Assembly (NCBI GenBank): GCA_038231275.1
Contig: JBBRLQ010000003.1
Coordinates: 352,001-416,000, forward strand
DNA: 64,000 nt
DNA from: Polyangiales bacterium
GTDB lineage: Bacteria > Myxococcota_A > Polyangia > Polyangiales > Polyangiaceae
Reading direction: 5' to 3'
Position 1 is the first letter of the stretch. Each line of letters starts with the position of its first letter. A program made the position numbers and the translations under genes. The notes under the pieces were generated by a model. That model did not search any database and was not told the origin of the DNA. It saw nothing but the letters and a program-made list of their open reading frames with translations. Shown in pieces: positions 1 to 64,000 of this stretch.

Positions 1-904
1 GCGCGCGATCCGCGCCTGGCAGCCGGAGCGCGGCGGGCGTCTCGATGTACGCCGCGATCCACTCCGCACGAAGCTCCGTCGCCATGCGCCGCGCCGCGCG
101 AGCGAGGCGAATCGAGGAGGGGCTCGGGCTCAGGCACACGAGCAGCCGCTCTGCGACCGGCCACGCGCGATCGATGCCGTGCGCGCGCTGGTATACGCGC
201 ATCTGCTCGTCGACGCGCGCCGCCGTACGACGCAAAGCCAGCTCGCGAAGCGCGATGAGGTTCCCCTTCTGGAAGAAGTGATCGATCGCGCGCCGCGCCT
301 GCTCGGGCAGATACACCTTGCCGTCCGCGAGGCGCTCGAGCAGCTCGTCCGGCGGCAGATCGATGATGCGCACGTCGTCGGCGGCCTCGAGCACCGAGTC
401 CGGCACCGTCTCCCGCACGACGACGCCGGTGATCTGCGCGACGACGTCGTTCAGGCTCTCGAGGTGCTGGACGTTGAGCGTCGTGTAGACGTCGATGCCG
501 GCGCCCAAGATCTCCTCGACGTCCTGCCATCGCTTGGGATGGCGCGAGCCCTCGACGTTGGCGTGCGCGAGCTCGTCGATCAGTACGATCCCCGGCTTTC
601 GCGCGAGTATGGCGTCGGTGTCGAGCTCCTCGAGCGGCACGCCCTTGTGGTCGATCTTCTTCTTCGGCAGCAGATCGAGGCCGATGCAGAGCGCGGCGGT
701 GTCGTAGCGGCCGTGCGTCTCCACGACGCCGATCACCACGTCGCGCTTCAAATCGCGCTCCGATCGCGCCGCCTCGAGCATCGCGTACGTCTTCCCGACG
801 CCCGGCGCGGCGCCGAAGAAGACGGTCAGCTTGCCGCGCTTGGCCCGCGACGCCTCGGCCTGCACACGGCGCAGGAGCTCGTCGGGATCCGGACGCGCGA
901 CCAT
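1..904 (-). CDS. kdpD: Sensor histidine kinase KdpD, N-terminal part (runs off the window's left edge)
   Basis: Not in the ORF track. Manual translation from ATG at 904: MVARPDPDELLRRV...GKLTVFFGAAPGVGKTYAML...DELAHAN..GSRHPKRWQDVEEIL..GIDVYTTLNVQHLESLND..VRETVPD, which are hallmark KdpD motifs. Confidence 0.95.
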   Translation of the reverse strand, partial: MVARPDPDELLRRVQAEASRAKRGKLTVFFGAAPGVGKTYAMLEAARSERDLKRDVVIGVVETHGRYDTAALCIGLDLLPKKKIDHKGVPLEELDTDAILARKPGIVLIDELAHANVEGSRHPKRWQDVEEILGAGIDVYTTLNVQHLESLNDVVAQITGVVVRETVPDSVLEAADDVRIIDLPPDELLERLADGKVYLPEQARRAIDHFFQKGNLIALRELALRRTAARVDEQMRVYQRAHGIDRAWPVAERLLVCLSPSPSSIRLARAARRMATELRAEWIAAYIETPAALRLPGADRA

Positions 905-1959: not shown

Positions 1960-2238
1960 GCCGCCGGCGTCGGCCGGGCCGTCGGGCAGCCCTGCATCGA
2001 CCGCGGGGCATCCGGCGCCGTTGCAATAGGGGTTGCCGCTCTTCGTCGGATCGGAGGGGCAGCAGTAATTCTCGGCGCACGTCGAGGGCTGCTGGCAAGT
2101 GAGCCCCTCGTCGCAGTCGTTGTGGCTGAGCGCGGGATTGCACCGCTCTCCTTCGCGACCTCCATCGCACCCGCTCTCGGCGAGAACGAGCGCGAGCGCG
2201 ACGGAGACCAGCGATACGGCGATGTTCGTTCGGTTCAT
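1951..2238 (-). CDS. Small Cys-rich lipoprotein
   Basis: MNRTNIAVSLVSVALALVLAESGC signal/lipobox followed by a Cys-rich domain; starts 8 nt after the porin stop. Confidence 0.75.
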   Translation of the reverse strand: MNRTNIAVSLVSVALALVLAESGCDGGREGERCNPALSHNDCDEGLTCQQPSTCAENYCCPSDPTKSGNPYCNGAGCPAVDAGLPDGPADAGGSG

Positions 2239-4236: not shown

Positions 4237-5493
4237 ATGGACGCCGTCGGCACAGATCCGATCGCAGGGCTTGCGCTCGGGCTGACGGTCATCCTGGTCG
4301 CCGCCAAGACGGCGGGGCACGTCGCGATTCGCGTCGGCGCGCCGGCGGTGCTCGGAGAGCTCCTCGTCGGGATCGCGCTCGCCGCAGTTCCGGGCGTCCC
4401 GTTCCTGCACGCGATCGGACAGAGCCCCGAGATCGACACGCTCTCGCGCCTCGGCGCGCTGCTGCTGGTCTTCGAGGTGGGCCTCGTGCTCACGGTGCGT
4501 GAAATTCTGGACGTCGGCGTGTCGTCGATCCTCGTCGCGGTAGTGGGCACGGCCGCTACGTTCGTCCTCGGATGGTCTTTGAGCGCGTGGCTCTTGAGCG
4601 GCCAGCCAAGCCACGTGCCCGTCTTCGTCGGCGCGGCGGTCACCGCCACGAGCATCGGCATCACGGCGCGCGTGCTCAAGGATCTGGGGCAGGCGCCAAC
4701 GCGTGAGGCGCGGATCGTCCTCGGCGCCGCGGTGCTCGACGACATCATCGGGCTTGTCGTGCTCACCGTCGTCAGTGGCTGGATCGCGAGCAAGACCGTC
4801 GGCGCGGCGGCGAGCGCGCCCTCGGTGGCCGTCGTCGTCGGCAAGAGCGTGGCGTTTCTTGGCCTGTCGATCGTGCTTGGAATGCGCCTCGCGCCGCGTC
4901 TCTTCGAGTGGGCCGCGCGTCTGCGGAGCGACGGCGCGCTCGTCGCGGTGGGCCTGGCGTTCTGCTTCGGCCTCTCGTGGGCGGCGAGCGTGATGGGCCT
5001 CGCCGCGATCATCGGCGCGTTCGCCGCGGGGCTGATCGTCGAGGAGTCGCACTCGCAGCGCTTCGTCGCGCGCGGCGAGCGCACGCTGGCGGTGCTCATC
5101 GAGCCGATCGCGTCGTTCCTCGTGCCGGTCTTCTTCGTCGTGATGGGGATGCGCACGCGCCTCGAGGTCTTTCGACAGCCCGCGGTGCTCGTCTTCGCGC
5201 TCGGGCTCACGCTCGCCGCCATCCTCGGAAAGCTCGGCGCCGGCCTGTCGGTGGGCAAGCGCGCGGACGGCCTCTCCATCGGCATCGGGATGATCCCGCG
5301 CGGCGAGGTGAGCCTCGTCTTCGCGAGCCTGGGGCTTTCGCTCGGCGCGATCGACTCCAGCATCTACTCGTCGCTCGTCGTCGTCGTGATCCTGACCACG
5401 CTCGTGACGCCCGCCATGCTCAAGTGGAGCCTCCGGCGCCGCCGCGACGCCGAGCTCTCCCGCGCGCCTACCTCACCGGGAAACGCAGCGTGA
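4237..5493 (+). CDS. Cation:proton antiporter (CPA2 family)
   Basis: About 12 TM helices; PAVLGELLVG, ATSIGITARVLKDLG, GAAVLDD, MIPRGEV motifs. Confidence 0.92.
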   Translation: MDAVGTDPIAGLALGLTVILVAAKTAGHVAIRVGAPAVLGELLVGIALAAVPGVPFLHAIGQSPEIDTLSRLGALLLVFEVGLVLTVREILDVGVSSILVAVVGTAATFVLGWSLSAWLLSGQPSHVPVFVGAAVTATSIGITARVLKDLGQAPTREARIVLGAAVLDDIIGLVVLTVVSGWIASKTVGAAASAPSVAVVVGKSVAFLGLSIVLGMRLAPRLFEWAARLRSDGALVAVGLAFCFGLSWAASVMGLAAIIGAFAAGLIVEESHSQRFVARGERTLAVLIEPIASFLVPVFFVVMGMRTRLEVFRQPAVLVFALGLTLAAILGKLGAGLSVGKRADGLSIGIGMIPRGEVSLVFASLGLSLGAIDSSIYSSLVVVVILTTLVTPAMLKWSLRRRRDAELSRAPTSPGNAA

Positions 5494-5787: not shown

Positions 5788-6498
5788 TCACGCCTCGGTC
5801 TTGAACCGGTAGCCGACGCCCGGCTCGGTCGCGAGGTACTTCGGACGCGCTGCGTCGTGCTCCAGCTTGTGGCGCAGCTGGGTCATGTAAACCCTTAGGT
5901 ACTGCGTCTGCGTCGCGTACGACGGTCCCCACACTTCCTTCAAGAGCTGGCGGTGCGTGAGCACGCGCCCGGCGTTCTTCATGAGGTACGTCACGAGCTT
6001 GTACTCGATCGGTGTGAGGTGCACCTCCACCTCGGCGAGATGAACCGACCGCTTGTCGAGGTCGAGCCTAATGTCGCCGACGACGATGACGGGCTCGGTC
6101 GTCGCCACGCCCGCACGCGCGGCGTGACGCAGCGCCACGCGAATGCGCGCCATCAGCTCGCCGGTTCCGAAGGGCTTCGTGAGGTAGTCGTCCGCGCCTT
6201 CGTCGAGCGCGCGCACTTTGTCCTCCTCCTGCCCACGCGCCGACACGACGATGATCGGCGCCTTCATCCACTCCCGCAGCTTGCGCGCGACCTCGAGCCC
6301 GTCCATGTCCGGCAGGCCGAGATCGAGCAGCACGAGCTCGGGGTTGTGTCCCTTGGCGAGCGTCAGCGCCTCCTCGCCCGACACGGCCTCGACGACGCGA
6401 TACCCGTGGGTCGTGAGCGATGTCCGAAGAAACCTGCGCATTTGCGCCTCGTCTTCGACCACCAAGAGGACTTGTTCGAGATCAGCCACGTCGTCCAC
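5788..6498 (-). CDS. kdpE: OmpR-family response regulator KdpE
   Basis: Receiver domain (VVEDE, LLDLGLPD, DYLTKPF) plus winged helix with VLTHRQLLKEVWG...QYLRVYMTQLRHKLE, typical of KdpE; kdpD nearby. Confidence 0.92.
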   Translation of the reverse strand: MDDVADLEQVLLVVEDEAQMRRFLRTSLTTHGYRVVEAVSGEEALTLAKGHNPELVLLDLGLPDMDGLEVARKLREWMKAPIIVVSARGQEEDKVRALDEGADDYLTKPFGTGELMARIRVALRHAARAGVATTEPVIVVGDIRLDLDKRSVHLAEVEVHLTPIEYKLVTYLMKNAGRVLTHRQLLKEVWGPSYATQTQYLRVYMTQLRHKLEHDAARPKYLATEPGVGYRFKTEA

Positions 6499-6517
6499 TA
6501 CCCGTGATCATCGTTCG

Positions 6518-6534
6518 CATAAAGAAAGCATAAA
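6518..6534 (-). promoter_or_regulatory. KdpE-like direct-repeat box between kdpE and kup
   Basis: Minus strand reads TTTATG-CTTTC-TTTATG (perfect repeat), close to the E. coli KdpE site TTTATA-N5-TTTACA. Confidence 0.65.
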
Positions 6535-6595
6535 ATTGCACCGACCTCGGCAAGATCGCCGAGCACGCTTCGCCGCGGTGGCAACGTTCCTTTCG

Positions 6596-8566
6596 ATGTC
6601 CACCGCGGCCCGAGCCTCGTCTCCAAGTATCGATGCAGCACCTCACCCCGTCTCCGCCATGCGCGTGCTGGTGTGGGGCGCGCTTGGCGTCGTCTTCGGC
6701 GACATCGGCACGTCGCCGCTCTACGCGATGTCGGAGACCGTCTCGTCGCACCTGATGGCCATGCACGGCCTGAAGGAGAAGGTGACGATGAGCTTTGGCC
6801 AATACTATGGCCGTGACGAGGTGCTCGGCTGGACGTCGCTCTTCATCTGGGCGATCGCGCTCGTCGTCACCCTCAAGTACGTCGTGCTCATTATGCGCGC
6901 CGACAACGAGGGCGAAGGCGGCATGTTCTCCATCCTCGCCCTCCTCAAGTCGAAGGCGGCGAAGCTCTTCACGATGAAGGGGATGTCGGTCATCGTCGCG
7001 ATGGCGGTGCTCGGCTCGGGGATGGTCCTCGGCGACGGAGTCATCACGCCGTCCTTGTCGATCATGTCGGCGTGGGAGGGGCTCGAGGTCGTGACCCACA
7101 GGTGGTCGCCGTACATTCCGTGGCTGTCGGTCGTGACGCTGATCGCGCTGTTCGGCATCCAGCGCTTTGGGACGCATCGTGTCGGCGCCGTCTTCGCGCC
7201 GGCGATGGGGATGTGGTTTTTGACCCTCGCCGTGATGGGCGCGTACTCCTTCTCGAAGCACCCGGAGATCATCGCGGCCATCAACCCGATGCACGCCGCC
7301 GCGTACATCGTGAAGTTCCCGAAGGCGACGCTCTACGTCATCGGCTCGGTCGACCTCTGCATCACCGGCTGCGAGGCGCTCTTCGCGGACATGGGCCACT
7401 TCAGCCGGCCCGCCGTGCGCCGCGCCTGGTATTGGGTCGTCTGGCCCGCGCTCATCTTGAACTACCTCGGCCAGGGCTCGCGCATGCTCGACCCCACGCC
7501 GATCGTCGACGGCAACGTGTTCTACGCGCTCGTCCCGTCGTCGCCGGGGTTCGTGTACCCGCTCGTCATCATCAGCTGGCTCGCCACCGTCATCGCCAGC
7601 CAGGCCCTCATCTCCGGCGCCTTCTCGCTCGTGAACCAGGCGATGCAGCTCGGCCTGTGCCCGCGCGTCAGCGTCGTGCACACGAACAAGGAGATGGAGG
7701 GGCAGATTTACATCCCCGAGGTGAACTGGATTTACCTCGCGCTCTGCATCGGGCTGGTGCTGCTCTTCAAGAGCTCGCACGCGCTCGCGCCGGCGTACGG
7801 TCTCGCGGTCACCGGCACGATGGCCTTCACGACGATCCTCTTTTACATGGTGGCCACGCGCGTCTGGAAGTGGAACCCCATCGCCATCGGCGCGGCGTGC
7901 ACGGGCCTCATCCTCGTCGACATCGCGTTCTTCCTCAGCAACGCGACGCAGTTTTTCGCGGGCGGCTACATCACGATCCTGATCGCGATCGCGACCGCCT
8001 TCATCTTTCTCACGTGGCGCAAGGGGCGCGCCGCGCTCGCCGAGGTGCTGCAAAACGCGGCGCTCCCGATGGATCTCTTTCTCTCGAGCATCCACGAAGA
8101 GAAACCCCATCGCGTGAAAGGCACCGCGGTCTTCATGACGAGCAACGTCGGAGTCCCGCACTCGCTCGTTCACTATTTCAAGCACTCAAAGACGCTGCAC
8201 GAGAACATCCTCTTCCTCACCGTGCAGACCAAGCACGTCCCCGAGGTGAAGGAGTCCGAGCGCATCGACGAGGTGATCGACTACGGCGACGGTCTGCACG
8301 GCGCGAAGGTCGTCTACGGCTTCATGGAGACGCCGGACATCCCAAAAATCCTCGGCGCGATGAACGCGCACGGCGTGAAGGTGGACGCGCGCGACGTTTC
8401 GTATTTCCTCGGGCGCGAGTCGCTGGTCTTCACCGGCAAATCCAAGATGAGCCTCCCCCGCAAGGTGTTCTTCAAGATGCTTAGCCAGAACGCCGTCGCG
8501 GCATCGGCCTTCTTCAAGCTGCCCCCGGGGCGCGTCGTCGAGCTTGGCATCCAAGTCGAGATCTGA
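6596..8566 (+). CDS. kup: KUP/HAK/KT potassium transporter
   Basis: LGVVFGDIGTSPLYA, RADNEGEGG, EALFADMGHF, GQIYIPEVNW, YGFMETP, VVELGIQVEI. Confidence 0.96.
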   Translation: MSTAARASSPSIDAAPHPVSAMRVLVWGALGVVFGDIGTSPLYAMSETVSSHLMAMHGLKEKVTMSFGQYYGRDEVLGWTSLFIWAIALVVTLKYVVLIMRADNEGEGGMFSILALLKSKAAKLFTMKGMSVIVAMAVLGSGMVLGDGVITPSLSIMSAWEGLEVVTHRWSPYIPWLSVVTLIALFGIQRFGTHRVGAVFAPAMGMWFLTLAVMGAYSFSKHPEIIAAINPMHAAAYIVKFPKATLYVIGSVDLCITGCEALFADMGHFSRPAVRRAWYWVVWPALILNYLGQGSRMLDPTPIVDGNVFYALVPSSPGFVYPLVIISWLATVIASQALISGAFSLVNQAMQLGLCPRVSVVHTNKEMEGQIYIPEVNWIYLALCIGLVLLFKSSHALAPAYGLAVTGTMAFTTILFYMVATRVWKWNPIAIGAACTGLILVDIAFFLSNATQFFAGGYITILIAIATAFIFLTWRKGRAALAEVLQNAALPMDLFLSSIHEEKPHRVKGTAVFMTSNVGVPHSLVHYFKHSKTLHENILFLTVQTKHVPEVKESERIDEVIDYGDGLHGAKVVYGFMETPDIPKILGAMNAHGVKVDARDVSYFLGRESLVFTGKSKMSLPRKVFFKMLSQNAVAASAFFKLPPGRVVELGIQVEI

Positions 8567-32595: not shown

Positions 32596-33150
32596 CTACG
32601 GCTTCTCGAGCTCGCTGAGGATGAACGCGCGCGCCTTGCGCCAGTCGCGCCGCACCGTTCGAACGTCGACGTCGAGCGCCCGCGCGATCTCGTCCTCCGC
32701 GAAGCCCGCGAAGAATCGCCACTCGACGACCCTCGCGAGGCGTTCGTCGAGCGCGGCGAGGCGGGTCAGGATCGCGTCGATCGCGAGGAGCTCCTCGACG
32801 TTCGACTCTTGGCCCACCGCGTCGAGCGCCGACCCCGTCGCCGGCAGCGGGCCACGCTTCTGCGCGTGGCGTCGCCGCGCGTGGTCCACGAGGATCTGGC
32901 GCATCGCGGTCGCCGCGACGGCGTAGAAGTGCGCGCGCCCCTGAAAATCCGGCGCTCCGTGAACGAGCTTGAGCCACGCCTCGTGCACGAGCGCCGTCGT
33001 GTGGAGCGTGTTGCCGCCGCTCCGCTCCAGATGCCGATGCGCGAGCGCGCGCAGCGTGTCGTACACCGCCGAGAACGCCTCGTCCGCGCCCGCGGCGTCT
33101 CCCGCAGCCGCGCGCGTGAGGAGCGGCGCGAGATCTACGGGCGCCGTCAC
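32596..33150 (-). CDS. ECF sigma factor (TIGR02999-like, kinase-associated type)
   Basis: VYDTLRALA, TLHTTALVHEAWLKL, AMRQILVDHAR, VVEWRFFAG, TVRRDWRKARAF. Confidence 0.9.
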   Translation of the reverse strand: MTAPVDLAPLLTRAAAGDAAGADEAFSAVYDTLRALAHRHLERSGGNTLHTTALVHEAWLKLVHGAPDFQGRAHFYAVAATAMRQILVDHARRRHAQKRGPLPATGSALDAVGQESNVEELLAIDAILTRLAALDERLARVVEWRFFAGFAEDEIARALDVDVRTVRRDWRKARAFILSELEKP

Positions 33151-33272
33151 ACGAGGAATCGTACCAGAACCGACACGGCCCATGTCCTGTCGCGCCGCCC
33201 CTTTGCGTTTAAGGGGGGTAGAGCCGACGTCCGGCTTTCGACAACGTCTCGGGAACGAGGAGGGCTTACGTC

Positions 33273-38484: not shown

Positions 38485-39798
38485 TCACGGGCACGTGTGG
38501 CTCGAGCACGCCGAGTACGCGTCGAGGCACTTTGCGAGCACGCAGGTCTGGCACGTGGACGGATCCGTGCACTCCGTCTTGCAGTTCTTTTGCACACAAT
38601 CGAGCATCCCGAAGAGCGGGCTCGACGCGCTCGCGCACGAGTCGACGATGCACTTCTGAAAGTTCGGACCGACGTCGATCTGCCCGTCGTGCGGGTTCGG
38701 CGCCTCCGTCGGATCCTTGCCGAGGACGTTCTGGACGCACGTCAGCGTGGTGCCGCACGTGGCGGTGCCGGTGCCGAAGCCGTCGCCGAACCCTTCGAGC
38801 TCGCCTTGCGGCGTCAGCACAGGGTTCTGGATGCAGTTCTCGAAGAGAGCCTGCTTCCGCGCCTCGACGACCGGGTAGTAGTAGGCGATCGTCATGCACA
38901 TCTCCTTGTCGCCCTTGAACTGACCCTGCACCACCATCGGATGCTCGTCGCCCGTGTAGTGGCAGACGGTGCGGAGGTACTGCCCTTTGCCGACCTTCAC
39001 CGGATCGTTCTTGATCAGCGGGAGATCCCAGTTGGTGCTGGTCAGAAGCGGCGTCGTGGAGGGCGCACCGTCGGCGCCGTCGAGGAACGTCTCGACCTTC
39101 GTGCCGCGCGAGTGCTCGTGCGTGGTCGTGCGGACCAGCGTGATGTCCTGGGGGACCTTGCAACGCATCTGCGCGACCGCGTCGGTGTGCGCGGGGACCA
39201 CGATATACGGATCGTAGAACTGGACGAGGCCGAGGCGGTCTTTCACCGCCGCGGGATCCGCGATGGTCATCGTCACATCCAGCTGGGTCGAAATCGGCGA
39301 CGCGGTCGTGTTGATCGCGTGCGTCTGGAAGAGCACCACCTCCTCCGACTTGAACGGGAAGGCGGTGGTCGCCGGGAAGTCGATGGTCCCCGTGGGCTCG
39401 CCCTGCAAGAACGCCGACGAGAACTGCGCATACTTCATCGCCCCGGCCGGCGCGAAACAGTCGAACGGCGTGTCGAGCGGAAGCTCCGCGACCGGCGCGC
39501 TCTCGACGAGGCGGTAAAGGCCCCAGTGGTGCGCCGCCTTCCAAGACCACGCGACGCCGGAGACGAGGACCTCGCCCGTCGCGCTCTTGGGCATCTTCTT
39601 GTACTCGCACCAGTGCGTCTCCTGCGACGGCGCGGTCGTGTAGCGGAGGGCATACGTGGAGCCGGCGGTGGTCGGCCCCGCCTCGGTGACCCCGGCGTCG
39701 GCGGGCGTGGCACCCCCCGGACTGGACGTCGACGAGCACGCGGCGGCGGCGATCGAAGCGGAAAGACACACGAAAAAGAGCGACGACCTGAGGAACAT
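38485..39798 (-). CDS. Copper type II ascorbate-dependent monooxygenase-like lipoprotein
   Basis: Lipobox AAAC; Cu ligands AHHW, QTHAIN, THEHSRG, EMCM; Cys-rich tail. Confidence 0.75.
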   Translation of the reverse strand: MFLRSSLFFVCLSASIAAAACSSTSSPGGATPADAGVTEAGPTTAGSTYALRYTTAPSQETHWCEYKKMPKSATGEVLVSGVAWSWKAAHHWGLYRLVESAPVAELPLDTPFDCFAPAGAMKYAQFSSAFLQGEPTGTIDFPATTAFPFKSEEVVLFQTHAINTTASPISTQLDVTMTIADPAAVKDRLGLVQFYDPYIVVPAHTDAVAQMRCKVPQDITLVRTTTHEHSRGTKVETFLDGADGAPSTTPLLTSTNWDLPLIKNDPVKVGKGQYLRTVCHYTGDEHPMVVQGQFKGDKEMCMTIAYYYPVVEARKQALFENCIQNPVLTPQGELEGFGDGFGTGTATCGTTLTCVQNVLGKDPTEAPNPHDGQIDVGPNFQKCIVDSCASASSPLFGMLDCVQKNCKTECTDPSTCQTCVLAKCLDAYSACSSHTCP

Positions 39799-55471: not shown

Positions 55472-57445
55472 CTACTCGTGGGCACGCCGCGTCTGGGCTC
55501 GGAAACCGTAGGGATAGAGGAACGCAATGGCGACGATGGAGACGGCCGCGCAGAGCGGCGCGAATCGCGGCCAGATGAACGCGACCGCGACCGAGGCTGC
55601 AAGGATGGGAACGGCGATCCAGAGGAGCCGCACCACCGTCACCGCCGTCATCGCCGTCACGAACGTCGCGAGCAAGAGCGAATGCACCGCCGCCTCGCTC
55701 GTGCTCCGGCCGAGGGCGAAGGTGGCCGCGTCGGAGGCGAGGACGCCGAGGCATGCGATGCCGTAGGCGCCCGCGATTCGGCGCGTCGCCGCCGTCGCGA
55801 GCAGCGCGCGACGCGTGAGCGCAAACGCGAGAGCGAGCGCGACCGCGGCGGCGCCGTCGAAGACGAGCGCCTCGGCGACGGGAAACGCCGCACCGCTGCG
55901 GACCGTCTGGTACGCCGCGATGGGCCCCGTGATGGCCCCGATCGCCGCCATCACCAGGAGCATCCGCGAAAGCGGATTGACGATCTTGGACGTATCGGCC
56001 TCGCGCGTCGTGTGCGCGTGTGCCCGAGCGTCGTCCTGCTCGCGGCGCATTTCCTCTTCCAGCGCGCTCACGCGCTCCACGAGATCTGCGTCGGGCGCGG
56101 TGAGATCTTGCAGGAGCGCGCGCGCCGTCGTCGGGCTCCGGACGGCGACGTCCCGCTCGACGAGCCGCGTGATGCTCGCCTGGAGCTCGGCGTGCAGCGT
56201 CGTATCGTGCGGCAAGAGCCTGAGCGCCGCGGCGAAGCCGAAGCGCGCCTCGATGAGGAAGCGGAACGCGTTCGCCGACGCCGGCCCTTCCTCGGTGACC
56301 AGCTCGCGCGCGCGCCGCGTCGCTTCCCGTGCGTCGCGCGCGACGATCTCGGCGTCACGGGCAACGAAGAACTGCGTGAGCGCCAAGCGAAAGGCGTCGG
56401 CGGACGGAGGACGGTCGTCTCTCTCGCGCGCCAGCGACGCGCGGACGAGCCTCGCGAGATCAGGGGAGACGCTGTCCGGAAGCTCGGGGATGGTCCCCGC
56501 GAGCGCTTTGCCGATCGCCACCATCGCGTTCGACGCCGCGTGCGGAGCGCGCCCCGTCAAGACGTGGTGTAGCGTCGCGCCCAAGAGGAAGACGTCGGTT
56601 CGCTCGTCGATCATCATCGGGTCGCCCATGGCCATTTCCGGCGCGAGGTACCCCGGCGTGCCCACGACCCCCTGCGCCTCGTCGGCGCGATCAGCCATCC
56701 GGAGGGCCACGCCCCAGTCGAGCAGGTAGACCTCTCCGAAGCGCCCGATCATCACGTTGTCGGGCTTGAGGTCTCGATGGATGACGCCGCGGTCGTGCGC
56801 GAACGCGAGCGCGCGGCAGATCTGGGAGAGGATCTCGACGTTCGCGCGCAGTCGATCGTCGTGCCCGTGCAGGAGCGGCGTCCACGCGGGGTGCGCTTCG
56901 TCGTCGAGCAGATCCCGCCACGTCGCGCCCTCGATGCGCTTCATCGCGAGCAGCGGCGATCCGTTCGCGTCCATGCCGAGCCAATGAACCGGAACGAGGT
57001 TCGGGTGCTCGAGCGCGCCCATCGTACGTGCTTCGCGGAGCAGGCCGTTCACCACCGCGGGGTCGCTGGAGGTCGGGACCTTGAGCGCGACCTGGCGCGA
57101 CAGATCGGGCTCGTCGGCGAGGTAGACGACGCCCATCCCGCCGGCCCCGAGCGCCTCTCGGACCGTGTAGCGTCCGATGCGGCTCCCAGGGGCGAGGAAG
57201 CTCCGCCCCTGCGCTTGCATTCGCGCGACGATGGCGGTCTGCGTCCCATCGCCCCCGCTGTCAAAAGGCGACGGCTCGAGGAACGTCCGCGCGAACCCGG
57301 CGGCGAGCTGATGACACTCCTGGCATCCGTCGAGGTGCCAGCGGACTCGGTCGGCGTCGCCCGGCGCGAGGTCGCCGTCGATGAAGGCGGCGAGCGCGCC
57401 GTCGTCGATGCAAGGACCGACGGACAGGGACTCGCGCAGCGCCAT
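55472..57445 (-). CDS. Ser/Thr kinase with N-terminal anti-sigma-type zinc finger and C-terminal TM domain
   Basis: HLDGCQEC (HxxxCxxC); LGAGGMGVVY, HRDLKPDN, DWG, GTPGYLAPE; several C-terminal TM helices. Confidence 0.9.
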   Translation of the reverse strand: MALRESLSVGPCIDDGALAAFIDGDLAPGDADRVRWHLDGCQECHQLAAGFARTFLEPSPFDSGGDGTQTAIVARMQAQGRSFLAPGSRIGRYTVREALGAGGMGVVYLADEPDLSRQVALKVPTSSDPAVVNGLLREARTMGALEHPNLVPVHWLGMDANGSPLLAMKRIEGATWRDLLDDEAHPAWTPLLHGHDDRLRANVEILSQICRALAFAHDRGVIHRDLKPDNVMIGRFGEVYLLDWGVALRMADRADEAQGVVGTPGYLAPEMAMGDPMMIDERTDVFLLGATLHHVLTGRAPHAASNAMVAIGKALAGTIPELPDSVSPDLARLVRASLARERDDRPPSADAFRLALTQFFVARDAEIVARDAREATRRARELVTEEGPASANAFRFLIEARFGFAAALRLLPHDTTLHAELQASITRLVERDVAVRSPTTARALLQDLTAPDADLVERVSALEEEMRREQDDARAHAHTTREADTSKIVNPLSRMLLVMAAIGAITGPIAAYQTVRSGAAFPVAEALVFDGAAAVALALAFALTRRALLATAATRRIAGAYGIACLGVLASDAATFALGRSTSEAAVHSLLLATFVTAMTAVTVVRLLWIAVPILAASVAVAFIWPRFAPLCAAVSIVAIAFLYPYGFRAQTRRAHE

Positions 57446-57564
57446 GCGCGTGAGTGTACACCCCGCACCGCGTCGCCCTGACGCGGGCGTCGGGCGAGCG
57501 GGAACGGCAGCAGTGGATCCAAATCCCACCGGCGGCTGCGCCAAAGTCAAATCAAGCCATGGCG

Positions 57565-61491: not shown

Positions 61492-61573
61492 ACGCTTTCG
61501 CGGGCTCAGCCCCGGGGGGGCCGGATCGGCGGCGCGTGACAAATCCTTTCGGTACCTGATGCGTCAAAGGATC

Positions 61574-62332
61574 ATGCGGCGCTTCTTCGGGCATCTCCCC
61601 CGGCGGGTCTTTCTGTTGTTGATGCTCGCGGGCGCCGCGCTCATCACGGCGTCCAGCCTCGCGTATTTCGACGGCGAGACGGTCCCGGCCTTCATCGTCG
61701 AGAAGCTGCCAGTGCGCTTCGAGACCTTGTGGCTCGCGTCGCTCCGCATCCACGTCGTCGCGGCCTTGCTCTCGCTCCCGCTGTGCACGGTGCTCATGAC
61801 GCGCACGCTCCAGAGGCGGCCGACGTGGCACCGGTGGATGGGGCGCGTCGCCGGGCTGCTCGTGCTCTTCGCGCTGGTGCCGACCGGCATCGTCCTCGCG
61901 TTCGACGCGAAGGGCGGCGGAGTCGTCACCGCGGGCTTCCTCCTCTCGGCCGCGATCGTCGCGTGGTTCATGGTGCGCGGGATCGCCGCCGCCCGCCGCC
62001 GCGACCTCGTTAGCCACCGACGCGCGATGCGTCACGTGTTCGCGCAAATGAGCGTCGCCGTTACATCGCGCGCGCTCCTGCTCGGTCTCGACGCCTTCGG
62101 GATTGACCCCGCCCTCTCGTACGTCGTCGCGCTCTGGGCTCCTGTCCTCGTCAGCGCCGGCGTCGCGGAGCTCGTATCGTCCAACGTCTCGAACCTCGTC
62201 CGATTCATTCGACCCATCCGCCTCATCCAACCTTTTCACCTCATCGTAAGGATCCGCCGTGAAGTCTCCGATCTGGTTGTCCGCGTGCGCGCTCGTTCTC
62301 TCGCTCGTCCCGTCGTTCGCGAAGGCCGATGA
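61574..62332 (+). CDS. DUF2306-like membrane protein
   Basis: RIHVVAA, WHRWMGRV, ARRRDLVSHRRAMR, AVTSRAL. Confidence 0.78.
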   Translation: MRRFFGHLPRRVFLLLMLAGAALITASSLAYFDGETVPAFIVEKLPVRFETLWLASLRIHVVAALLSLPLCTVLMTRTLQRRPTWHRWMGRVAGLLVLFALVPTGIVLAFDAKGGGVVTAGFLLSAAIVAWFMVRGIAAARRRDLVSHRRAMRHVFAQMSVAVTSRALLLGLDAFGIDPALSYVVALWAPVLVSAGVAELVSSNVSNLVRFIRPIRLIQPFHLIVRIRREVSDLVVRVRARSLARPVVREGR

Positions 62333-62696
62333 GCCGTCGCCTGCCGCGCAGGTTCAGACCCGCGTAGAGCAGGGCCTCGTCAAGCCGCTGGCCGACTACG
62401 AGCGATCGACCAGCCGCTTCTCTCGCGCGCGCGTGCCGCCGCGGGAGCGCCGTGTCCGGGTTACGCAGGTCGCTGCGTCGCGCGACGCGTCGGGTCGCGC
62501 GTTCATGGCCTTCGCGGTCGACGTGCGGTTCGGCACCGAGTGGCGCGAGAACGATCTGGTGGGATGCGCCTACACGACGAGCGGAGATTTGTTCGTGAAG
62601 CGTGGCGACGCGTACCGCCCGGCGGCGTTCCTGCTCGGCAAGAACGTCGAGCCGGTGGCCGGTGTCTGCCAGTCCGCCCCCACGGCGAGCGCCTGA
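62259..62696 (+). CDS. Hypothetical secreted protein
   Basis: Signal peptide MKSPIWLSACALVLSLVPSFAKA; overlaps the upstream gene by 74 nt. Confidence 0.7.
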   Translation: MKSPIWLSACALVLSLVPSFAKADEPSPAAQVQTRVEQGLVKPLADYERSTSRFSRARVPPRERRVRVTQVAASRDASGRAFMAFAVDVRFGTEWRENDLVGCAYTTSGDLFVKRGDAYRPAAFLLGKNVEPVAGVCQSAPTASA

Positions 62697-62725
62697 CCGG
62701 ACGACGCCTCCGCGGGCTCGCCGAG

Positions 62726-62762
62726 AAAAAAAGCGCCCCGCGGGTTTCGTCCGCGGAGCGCT
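62726..62762 (-). terminator. Intrinsic terminator after the metallothionein-like gene
   Basis: Minus strand reads AGCGCTCCGCGGA-CGAAA-CCCGCGGGGCGC-TTTTTTT. Confidence 0.8.
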
Positions 62763-62786
62763 CGACGCGGCGCGCAGGTCAGCGCG

Positions 62787-62948
62787 TCAGCTGGGGGTGC
62801 TGCAGCACGCGCAGCCGTTGCACGCGCAGGGCTTCGCGCAGCCGCAAGCAGGCGCGCACTCGCAGCCACCCTTCGCCTCGGCCTTGCATGCGCAGGTTTC
62901 GGCGTTGCACTTCGCGCAGGTACAATCGGGGTTCGTCTTCTTCGACAT
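62787..62948 (-). CDS. Metallothionein-like peptide (53 aa, 14 Cys)
   Basis: Manual translation: MSKKTNPDCTCAKCNAETCACKAEAKGGCECAPACGCAKPCACNGCACCSTPS; GGAAAG upstream; below the ORF-track size range. Confidence 0.85.
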   Translation of the reverse strand: MSKKTNPDCTCAKCNAETCACKAEAKGGCECAPACGCAKPCACNGCACCSTPS

Positions 62949-62985
62949 GACGGTCTCGCTTTCCGAGCACTGGGCTCACCCTTGC

Positions 62986-63012
62986 TGACGCACGCCCCGG
63001 CCCCGCATTACA
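62986..63012 (-). promoter_or_regulatory. ECF-type promoter for the metallothionein-like gene
   Basis: TGTAAT-N16-CGTCA; the -35 overlaps the sigma factor stop codon. Confidence 0.55.
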
Positions 63013-63601
63013 CCGATTCGCGATCGGCTTCGTTTTTACACGTGCACGCGACACAGCCGTGGGTGGCGCACGTCCCGCACGAGACCGCTACCTGCCGCCG
63101 CAGCGCGTCGCGGGCTCGAAATACACGCACGGCCGCGTTGCTCTCGGAGATTCCGCGCTCCTTTGCGAAGTCCTTCACCGCGACGCCGTCGATCTCGACC
63201 CTGCGGAGCGCTTCGGCGTACTCGGGCTTTAGCGTGACGGCCAAGCGCGACACGCAACGGCAGACCTCGGCGCGATCGTCGGGCGACGGCTCTTCGGCCT
63301 TCTCGAGCTCTTCGGCGAATTTGCCGAGCGCGCGATCGGCGGCGCTCGTGCGCCGGTAATAGTCGATCGTCGCGTTACGGAGCGTCCGGTAGAACCACGG
63401 CACGGCCGACTCTCCGTCGCGCAGCGTCGCCATCGTGTCGAGCCCACGGGCGAAGGCTTCTTGGAGGATGTCCTCCGCCACGTCACGCCGACCGACGCGG
63501 CGCTCGAGGAAGCGCAGAAACGCGCGATGGTTCTCGACGAGCGCGGCGATGACCTCCGGATCGCGGGGCCGCTCGGGGAGGTCACTCGGATCGTCGCTCA
63601 T
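63008..63601 (-). CDS. CorE-like metal-responsive ECF sigma factor with Cys-rich C-terminus
   Basis: Sigma2 (AEDILQEAF, WFYRTLRNATIDYYR), CRC linker motif, sigma4, C-terminal SCGTCATHGCVACTC. Confidence 0.88.
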   Translation of the reverse strand: MSDDPSDLPERPRDPEVIAALVENHRAFLRFLERRVGRRDVAEDILQEAFARGLDTMATLRDGESAVPWFYRTLRNATIDYYRRTSAADRALGKFAEELEKAEEPSPDDRAEVCRCVSRLAVTLKPEYAEALRRVEIDGVAVKDFAKERGISESNAAVRVFRARDALRRQVAVSCGTCATHGCVACTCKNEADRESV

Positions 63602-63649
63602 GCCTTCCGTTTAGCACTTCTCGCCGCCGCCGTCGGCAGCCGCGACGCG

Positions 63650-64000
63650 TCACACGAGGCGCAGCTCCATGAAGCGCGCGCCGTCGATTGGATTCTCCCG
63701 GTAGGGCGCGACGTCGCGGAAGCCGAGCGATTCGTAGAGCGCGATGGCGGCCTTCATCGACGACACGGTGTCGAGCTTCATCGCGCGATGGCCGGCGGCC
63801 CGTCCCTCCATGACGATGGACTCCGCGAGCCGTCGGCCAATTCCGCGACCGAGAAATCGTGGCCGGACGAAGAGCCGCTTCATCTCGCACTCGCCATCGC
63901 CGATCGCGCGGAGGGCGACGCACCCCGCGACGACGCCGTCCGCGCGCGCGAGCAGGAGACGCCCGGAAGGAGGGGCATACGCGCCGGGGAGGCCCGCCAG
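63650..64000 (-). CDS. GNAT acetyltransferase (5' end outside the window)
   Basis: LPGAYAPPSGRLLLA..AGCVALR..ECEMKRLFVRPRFLGRGIG..MKLDT..AIALYESLGF. Confidence 0.9.
   Translation of the reverse strand: MAGLPGAYAPPSGRLLLARADGVVAGCVALRAIGDGECEMKRLFVRPRFLGRGIGRRLAESIVMEGRAAGHRAMKLDTVSSMKAAIALYESLGFRDVAPYRENPIDGARFMELRLV

Follow-up and report, generated by a model that had tools for sequence, protein, structure and literature searches.

A cysteine-rich, metallothionein-like open reading frame beside a CorE-like sigma factor gene in a Polyangiales bacterium

Anatomy of the locus

We analysed a window of 64,000 nucleotides (nt) from a Polyangiales bacterium (contig JBBRLQ010000003.1), near the end of which a gene for a sigma factor of the extracytoplasmic function (ECF) type is followed on the minus strand by a short, cysteine-rich open reading frame (ORF). 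The sigma gene (63008..63601, minus strand) encodes 197 residues. The Cys-rich ORF (62787..62948, minus strand), which is metallothionein-like, runs from an ATG start to a TGA stop codon and encodes 53 residues, with 59 nt between the sigma stop codon and the ATG. Re-reading the translation bore out the composition given in the original prediction, which had been made from the letters of this DNA: 14 residues are Cys (26%), which form five CxC motifs and one CxCC motif and leave a single Cys apart; His, Phe, Trp and Tyr are all lacking. Metallothioneins are defined operationally as proteins under about 10 kDa, high in Cys with CxC or CC motifs and with few or no aromatic residues, which hold several metal ions in metal-thiolate clusters and whose expression is induced by metals. 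The ORF has the size (under about 10 kDa), the Cys and CxC content and the low aromatic content of this class. It had also been called unannotated, a status not readable from the letters of the window; the exact peptide is indeed absent from a collection of 15 billion proteins.

A candidate ECF-type promoter spans the end of the sigma gene and the gap that follows it. The putative -35 element, TGTAAT (63007..63012, minus strand), contains the TAA stop codon of the sigma gene (63010-63008), and the putative -10 element, CGTC(A) (62986..62990, minus strand), lies 16 nt beyond it. From CGTC to the ATG there are 38 nt, and the inferred 5' leader (62949..62985, minus strand) would measure about 30 nt from the inferred start site; ahead of the ATG it has a stretch weakly rich in purines. 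An intrinsic terminator (62721..62763, minus strand) begins 24 nt past the stop codon of the ORF. Its stem (62763..62731, minus strand) has 13 pairs, 10 of them G-C, and a loop of 7 nt, followed by a U-run that this hairpin possesses on the minus strand only. The 86-nt fold has an energy of -43.4 kcal/mol (z = -2.67; 2 of 200 shuffles were equally stable), and a terminator scan of the region gave 2 sites against 0.9 expected, a count that taken alone is within chance. The gap, the TGTAAT-N16-CGTCA promoter and the terminator were all found where the original prediction had placed them. A sigma-70 promoter scan of 62500-63800 returned 0 sites, which has no bearing on an ECF-type promoter, and an Rfam search of 62400-63800 gave only two sub-threshold chance matches. 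At 63012..62987 (minus strand) the promoter is the sole match to TGTAAY-N15-17-CGTC in the 64-kb window, where 0.14 are expected and at least one occurred in 12 of 100 shuffles; a search allowing one mismatch added a single site at 2022-2047 (plus strand), within chance at 1.09 expected. Single features inside the window are each only mildly unlikely, and the weight of the case comes from 80 related loci.

In Pfam the sigma factor matches Sigma70_r2 (6.4e-11) and Sigma70_r4_2 (5.3e-06), with no further domain in its 197 residues, and its best NCBIfam model, matched below the model cut-off, is SigZ. In an alignment with relatives, the CxC of the linker (C114, C116) is invariant in 20/20, as are C175, C178, H181, C183, C186 and C188 of the C-terminal Cys-rich domain, which holds five Cys and one His. 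A linker CxC and a C-terminal Cys-rich domain are described as the essential hallmarks of CorE-like (ECF44) factors in passages of PMC4937300; because both are present, the assignment of the window sigma to this group, as originally proposed, is supported by its sequence. ECF44 now lies inside ECF238, together with SigZ (PMC7826278). As passages of PMC4937300 have it, CorE and CorE2 act without an anti-sigma factor, CorE2 responds to Cd and Zn, and one Cys of the C-terminal domain switches between Cd and Cu specificity. No anti-sigma domain was found next to the window sigma, upstream of which the window extends for 400 nt; its neighbours are the Cys-rich ORF downstream and a GNAT gene upstream. 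Of 6397 candidates from a search with the sigma sequence, 5558 are relatives at E <= 1e-10. Those nearest to it, at 69-78% identity, sit mostly on metagenome contigs, and those that are named carry the labels Labilithrix, Myxococcales or Deltaproteobacteria. [quoted passage not shown]

Two plus-strand ORFs converge on the Cys-rich ORF. The nearer (62259-62696) encodes 145 residues with a signal-peptide-like start and belongs to no family; the other (61559-62332), which as listed shares about 70 nt with it, is a gene for a DUF2306 membrane protein.

Conservation of the promoter and of the Cys-rich ORFs

The related loci are the best 80 of 326 confirmed in a scan of genome contigs with the sigma alignment, and comprise 492,769 nt; individual loci are cited below by their L numbers. 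They contain 55 matches to TGTAAY-N15-17-CGTC, in 43 loci, whereas 100 Markov-1 resamples of the same sequences gave 1.5 +/- 1.4 matches with a maximum of 6. The promoter proposed from the window alone is therefore, on this count, supported as a conserved promoter of the sigma clade. The spacer measures 16 nt in 50/55 sites, and in these 50 the consensus extends to GG ahead of TGTAAT and G behind it, and to TG ahead of CGTC and GC two bases beyond it; the window promoter agrees with every one of these flanking bases. As in the window, the sigma stop codon falls inside the -35 hexamer in L002, L003, L004 and L038. The ECF238 entry of the ECF reclassification describes the predicted target promoters as not conserved and limits conserved genomic context to one subgroup (PMC7826278 supplementary text), a gap that the motif of this clade fills. 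A motif bound by CorE has been published (PMC3107203, Figure S3). Some sites form back-to-back divergent pairs, either between CopZ-like and CopA-like genes or between efflux and cupredoxin genes (for example L005 494-556, L008 494-557, and L021 2514-2577 and 3853-3916).

We scanned the same loci and the window for ORFs of at most 90 residues in which Cys made up at least 15% and numbered 6 or more within 30 residues, Arg was scarce and Trp absent. The scan returned 28 candidates in the 80 loci and 2 in the window, 30 across 557 kb. Four were dropped: those of L029 and L046 are internal starts inside the sigma factor's own Cys-rich domain, that at L050 5535 is an off-frame stretch, and the second window candidate is the C-terminal end of a larger protein and has no promoter. 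The other 26 (one in each of 25 loci, and the window ORF) all sit behind the promoter. Every one of the 25 adjoins the sigma gene, and each is preceded by the promoter with a 16-nt spacer and at most one mismatch (14 exact, 11 with one mismatch), in keeping with the earlier proposal of a metallothionein-like ORF under a CorE-like sigma. The distance from promoter to ATG is 3-79 nt with the start codons chosen by the scan and 23-79 nt for 24/25, a range that includes the 38 nt of the window; in L066 it is about 60 nt from an internal ATG. AAGGAG precedes the ATG in many of the 25. Upstream of the sigma gene lie 13 on its own strand and 4 in divergent orientation; downstream of it lie 6 on its own strand, which is the layout of the window, and 2 in convergent orientation.

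The small-ORF scan suggested with the original prediction thus found a Cys-rich ORF in 25/80 loci, and these are conserved as coding sequence. Pairs within four groups of related ORFs show more synonymous than non-synonymous change (proportions pS > pN) in 20/20 cases. All aligned Cys are kept in 18/20 pairs and 10/11 in the remaining two; the 15 Gemmatimonadales pairs all keep 11/11 Cys at pS values of up to 0.90. By these comparisons the related ORFs are coding genes under selection for their cysteines. With the window peptide included, alignment of the 26 sequences shows a shared core: three CxC units, three residues apart and mostly followed by Gly, Ala or Ser. Its columns C29, C31, C35, C37, C41 and C43 are either invariant or conserved to at least 90%. 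The window ORF fits the class in its triple CxC core, its exact promoter 38 nt before the ATG and its place adjoining the sigma gene.

Likeness between the window peptide and the others extends beyond composition. Smith-Waterman comparison gave z scores of 4.0-5.5 against 6/25 related peptides, and 0/300 composition-preserving shuffles did as well. A hidden Markov model (HMM) of the other 25 scored the window peptide at 1.8 bits, against -14.4 +/- 4.9 for shuffles, of which 2/1000 reached 1.8. Residue order, as judged from these alignments, is therefore common to the window peptide and the related ORFs, and the 26 peptides may be either one homologous family or a convergent class.

Pfam and NCBIfam contain no model that matches the window peptide at E <= 1, and none of their metallothionein models, SmtA/BmtA (PF02069) included, matches any of 16 related peptides. 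Of ten exact peptides sought in the 15-billion-protein collection none was present, though the collection contains the window's neighbouring sigma. A profile of the 26 sequences retrieved 3 proteins at E <= 0.01 among 1544 candidates from the same collection, one of them the ORF of L075 with a longer start, named 'hypothetical protein'. The Cys-rich ORFs are largely invisible to current annotation. For the idea of a new metallothionein family, novelty to the family libraries and recurrence in 25/80 loci stand; descent from a single ancestor is possible. A tblastn search of the PLSDB plasmids with the window peptide, with the low-complexity filter on, gave no match.

Against the PDB the profile matched 7 chains at E values of 0.076-4.8, and 6 of the 7 are metallothioneins, from wheat, sea urchin, snail and Neurospora. 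The matches agree with the eukaryote-like CxC composition that had been remarked on, but at such E values homology is not established. In the ESM Atlas the nearest entries are three hypothetical-protein clusters (scores 0.92-0.89), one of them mostly from Myxococcota; Metallothio_5, Metallothio_PEC and Metallothio follow at 0.86-0.78, scores of low recognition value that serve as a lead only. AlphaFold2, given the 26-row alignment and no metal, modelled the window peptide with a mean predicted local distance difference test (pLDDT) score of 49, which fits metal-dependent folding. The predicted complex of sigma and peptide scored 0.00, a value obtained without controls that counts neither for nor against binding.

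Promoter targets, metal and the proposed circuit

For each of the 55 sites, the ORFs starting within 200 nt were listed, and the plausible one was picked by hand and scanned against Pfam. At 49/55 sites this gene encodes a copper-type ATPase, a CopZ-like protein, a cupredoxin, an efflux component, a copper-storage-like protein, the sigma factor or a Cys-rich small ORF. The largest groups are the Cys-rich small ORFs (14) and P1B-type ATPases (14; 9 with HMA domains and 5 with HMBD/YHS domains), followed by single-domain HMA chaperones (8), Cupredoxin_1 proteins (6) and sigma genes (4); an outer-membrane efflux protein (OEP), a HlyD/CusB-type adaptor and a DUF326 protein with a Csp1-like match below cut-off occur once each. 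Five sites precede ORFs of no family, and one, which has a 17-nt spacer and probably matches by chance, precedes a GFO/IDH/MocA oxidoreductase. Eight ATPases were tested, and for all of them the best match is CopA or the general heavy-metal P-type ATPase model; they score 547-597 bits with the copper model TIGR01511 versus 378-408 bits with the cadmium model TIGR01512; CopZ is the best match of both chaperones tested (2/2). A cation-diffusion-facilitator gene, the kind found beside corE2, stands behind none of the 55 sites. Around corE in Myxococcus xanthus there are genes for an ATPase, a cupredoxin, an efflux protein, a multicopper oxidase and a metallochaperone (PMC4937300 Table S4), and from its gene content the sigma clade looks like a CorE-type copper regulon. 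Cu(I) appears the most likely metal, because the same promoter elsewhere precedes genes for CopA-type ATPases, for CopZ-like chaperones and cupredoxins, and for a Csp1-like protein; the original prediction had left the choice of metal open.

A maximum-likelihood tree of 79 locus sigmas and the window sigma (L068 was left out as too short) places the latter in a well-supported clade of four rows with L001-L003, from Polyangiaceae. The tree needs no fewer than 9 changes to explain where a Cys-rich ORF is present, and well-supported branches force 6 of these; within one large clade, of Gemmatimonadota, Acidobacteriota and Eisenbacteria, 18/20 rows have the trait. From these comparisons, the slot behind the sigma gene seems to take interchangeable small copper-handling cargo genes. 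Behind promoters that overlap the sigma stop codon, L002 (3578-3888) and L003 (3530-3819) have a CopZ-like HMA chaperone and L004 (3584-3829) has a His-rich ORF of 71 residues and no family; in L050 (3534-3941) a Cys-rich protein of 117 residues, with DUF326 and a sub-threshold Csp1-family match, directly follows the sigma gene behind the promoter. The metagenome bins of L013, L021 and L023 are labelled Enterobacteriaceae, Enterobacterales or Bifidobacterium, and on the tree their sigmas group with those of bins labelled Acidobacteriota; these taxon labels may be binning errors.

From the gene anatomy, the conserved promoter, the recurrence of the ORFs and the purifying selection on them, we infer a working circuit. 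We consider it likely that the two genes of the window form a sensor-buffer module in which the sigma factor induces a cytoplasmic metal buffer, probably for Cu(I). By analogy with CorE and CorE2, a thiophilic metal would bind the CxC and the C-terminal Cys-rich domain and so activate the sigma factor, which would need no anti-sigma partner. The holoenzyme would then recognise TGTAAT-N16-CGTC, start a few bases past CGTC and transcribe about 230 nt as a monocistronic RNA, stopping at the hairpin 62763-62731. Its product, a cytoplasmic peptide of 53 residues that is presumably unfolded on its own, would wrap several metal ions in thiolate clusters and so act as a metallothionein. As the metal is buffered, free metal would fall and the sigma factor would switch off, closing a negative feedback loop.

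Several observations weigh against this interpretation. The window sigma lacks a sixth, most C-terminal Cys that is present in 15/19 aligned relatives, and within the window (400 nt available) the promoter is not repeated upstream of the sigma gene. The Shine-Dalgarno match before the ATG is weak, and G+C at third codon positions (GC3) is 0.85 both for the Cys-rich frame and for an antisense frame (62602-62988, plus strand). Within the four-row sigma clade only the window has a Cys-rich ORF: L002 and L003 carry the CopZ-like gene in the same slot behind the same promoter, and in L001 only about 300 nt of sequence lie downstream of the sigma gene. Because the closest relatives have the CopZ-like gene there, the pairing of sigma and Cys-rich ORF is a local variant in this genome. 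At 1.8 bits the likeness of the window peptide to the other 25 is modest, and it could stem from convergent CxC spacing, since shuffling destroys spacing. A word-index search for homologues of the window peptide found nothing, and an exhaustive phmmer search gave one match, P0121 (E = 7.4e-4). In this protein of 102 residues, Cys-rich ends flank a YCII-related fragment, and the C-terminal end is very like that of the window peptide; the Cys-rich ends match no Pfam or NCBIfam model at E <= 1 either, and P0121 may be a fusion or a gene-calling artefact.

The architecture may be as we propose with Zn(II) or Cd(II) as the metal, as for CorE2, which we regard as unlikely. The response of CorE2 to Cd and Zn and the single Cys that switches Cd and Cu specificity (passages of PMC4937300) are consistent with such a choice, as are the CxC-rich metallothioneins of animals and plants, which bind Zn and Cd and are represented among the weak PDB matches by wheat Ec-1 and the snail Cd-metallothionein. 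The genes behind the promoter point the other way: none of the 55 sites leads into a cation-diffusion-facilitator gene, the ATPases are CopA- or TIGR01511-best in 8/8 and the chaperones CopZ-best in 2/2, and cupredoxins and a Csp1-like protein are also among the targets.

It is quite improbable that the peptide works chiefly with the sigma factor as its partner, drawing metal from the Cys-rich domain of the sigma or passing metal to it, and so serves as a metal-dependent off-switch or dedicated metallochaperone with an anti-sigma-like role. Linkage is tight, with the ORF directly downstream of the sigma gene in 6 loci and the window, and in 13/25 loci the ORF lies directly upstream on the same strand behind one promoter, an arrangement that would entail co-transcription with the sigma gene; ECF sigma genes are, moreover, usually paired with a regulator (as generally held, and in passages of PMC8999054). 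Against a partner role, the peptide lacks both an anti-sigma domain and an HxxxCxxC motif and matches no family, CorE and CorE2 are described as functioning without an anti-sigma factor (PMC4937300), and the same slot and promoter elsewhere hold CopZ-like, Csp1-like or efflux genes, that is, interchangeable cargo.

Very improbable, in our judgement, is a chance open frame in G+C-rich DNA whose promoter drives a non-coding RNA or nothing. At 69% G+C open frames are many, five ORFs overlap the stretch of the Cys-rich ORF, and the equal GC3 of the antisense frame and the weak ribosome-binding site would suit such an accident. However, promoter and terminator bracket exactly this ORF, 26/30 composition candidates in 557 kb stand behind the promoter and the other four are explained, and the related ORFs retain their Cys codons while synonymous sites change; no Rfam family matches the region, and the antisense ORF has no Pfam match. 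We dismiss as hardly credible a precursor of a secreted or modified Cys-rich peptide (a ribosomally synthesised and post-translationally modified peptide or a chalkophore-like copper chelator), for although small size, Cys richness and the copper link would suit one, the ORF lacks a signal peptide and a hydrophobic leader, its neighbours (the DUF2306 membrane protein, the familyless secreted protein and GNAT) include no maturation enzyme or exporter, and the identified neighbours in the 25 related loci are the sigma and metal-handling genes.

The sensor-buffer module may have a wider reach. A tentative extension, which we hold to be possible and on balance doubtful, is that soil bacteria from no fewer than four phyla (going by record labels, Myxococcota, Acidobacteriota, Gemmatimonadota and Candidatus Eisenbacteria) possess a self-contained copper circuit of a CorE-like sigma and a family of almost wholly unannotated, eukaryote-like, mostly His-free CxC-repeat metallothioneins behind one conserved promoter, in which the metallothionein would also reset the sigma factor by competing for metal. 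This would amount to a loop of the Ace1/Cup1 kind within RNA polymerase.

Elsewhere in the window, a gene at 38488-39798 (minus strand) encodes a protein of 437 residues with a Cu2_monoox_C domain (copper type II monooxygenase) and 8 Cys in its last 40 residues, and has no ECF-type promoter. A second ECF sigma gene (32599-33183, minus strand) is of another type (Pfam Sigma70_ECF, 1.9e-44), and a Ser/Thr protein kinase gene (55475-57550, minus strand) encodes an N-terminal zf-HC2, a motif usual in anti-sigma factors. A cation-transport cluster at the start of the window consists of genes for a KdpD sensor-domain protein (2-904, minus strand, running off the window end), a Na+/H+ exchanger (4237-5490, plus strand) and a Kup-type K+ transporter (6218-8563, plus strand).

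Comparison with known metal-buffering systems

Bacterial metallothioneins are considered rare. Only two had been functionally studied by 2020, according to a passage of PMC7387436, and a 2026 paper still describes what is known of them as limited (PMC13578184). Full-text searches, whose coverage leaves out most subscription journals, found no literature tying a CorE-like sigma to a metallothionein, and the word 'metallothionein' occurs 0 times in PMC7826278 (main and supplementary text), PMC8999054 and PMC6851896, and in the supplementary file of PMC4937300 that contains Table S4. What appears to be new, and is well supported by the sequences compared, is a metallothionein-like gene as an apparent direct target of a metal-sensing ECF sigma factor, together with the reach of this arrangement beyond one locus. 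The combination of a CorE-like sigma, TGTAAT-N16-CGTC and a short ORF of CxC repeats is a simple, searchable signature, and it yields 26 candidates unseen in family libraries. If these peptides bind metal, metallothionein buffering in soil phyla would be far commoner than annotation suggests and ECF sigma factors would gain a new class of target; promoter and sigma would then offer a compact metal-inducible switch, and the peptides a metal-capture material.

The window sigma resembles CorE and CorE2 of M. xanthus in its sigma-2 and sigma-4.2 domains, linker CxC and C-terminal Cys-rich domain, and the copper-type neighbours and targets of its clade resemble those of CorE. It differs from both in having five Cys and one His in the C-terminal domain, where CorE and CorE2 have six Cys by the description in PMC4937300, and in adjoining a metallothionein-like target gene.

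Among bacterial metal buffers, the SmtA/BmtA family (PF02069, including Pseudomonas PmtA) has a profile that does not match the window peptide; SmtA uses His ligands in a zinc-finger-like fold and is controlled by the SmtB repressor. The window peptide has no His, unlike MymT, the Cu(I) metallothionein of Mycobacterium tuberculosis, which carries His inside its Cys motif. Compared by description only, both peptides are small, Cys-rich and, in the window as predicted, cytoplasmic, and MymT serves copper detoxification under a copper-sensing regulator (passages of PMC7387436 and PMC10141476); that regulator is the RicR repressor (PMC10141476) and not a sigma factor. Csp1/Csp3 and CopZ share with the Cys-rich ORF the promoter-driven slot in related loci (L050, and the 8 HMA sites), but are folded proteins, four-helix-bundle or ferredoxin-like, whereas the window peptide is predicted to be unstructured (pLDDT 49).

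The eukaryotic CxC metallothioneins (wheat Ec-1, sea urchin, snail Cd-metallothionein and Neurospora Cu-metallothionein) have the same core of CxC units spaced by three, with Gly or Ala after the units. They differ in regulation and in domain of life, and at E values of 0.076-4.8 the likeness may be convergent. The window locus shares its proposed logic with Ace1/Cup1 of yeast, in which a copper-binding transcription factor with a Cys cluster turns on a metallothionein that buffers copper. The proteins and the machinery are unrelated, and in the window the putative sensor is itself a subunit of RNA polymerase.

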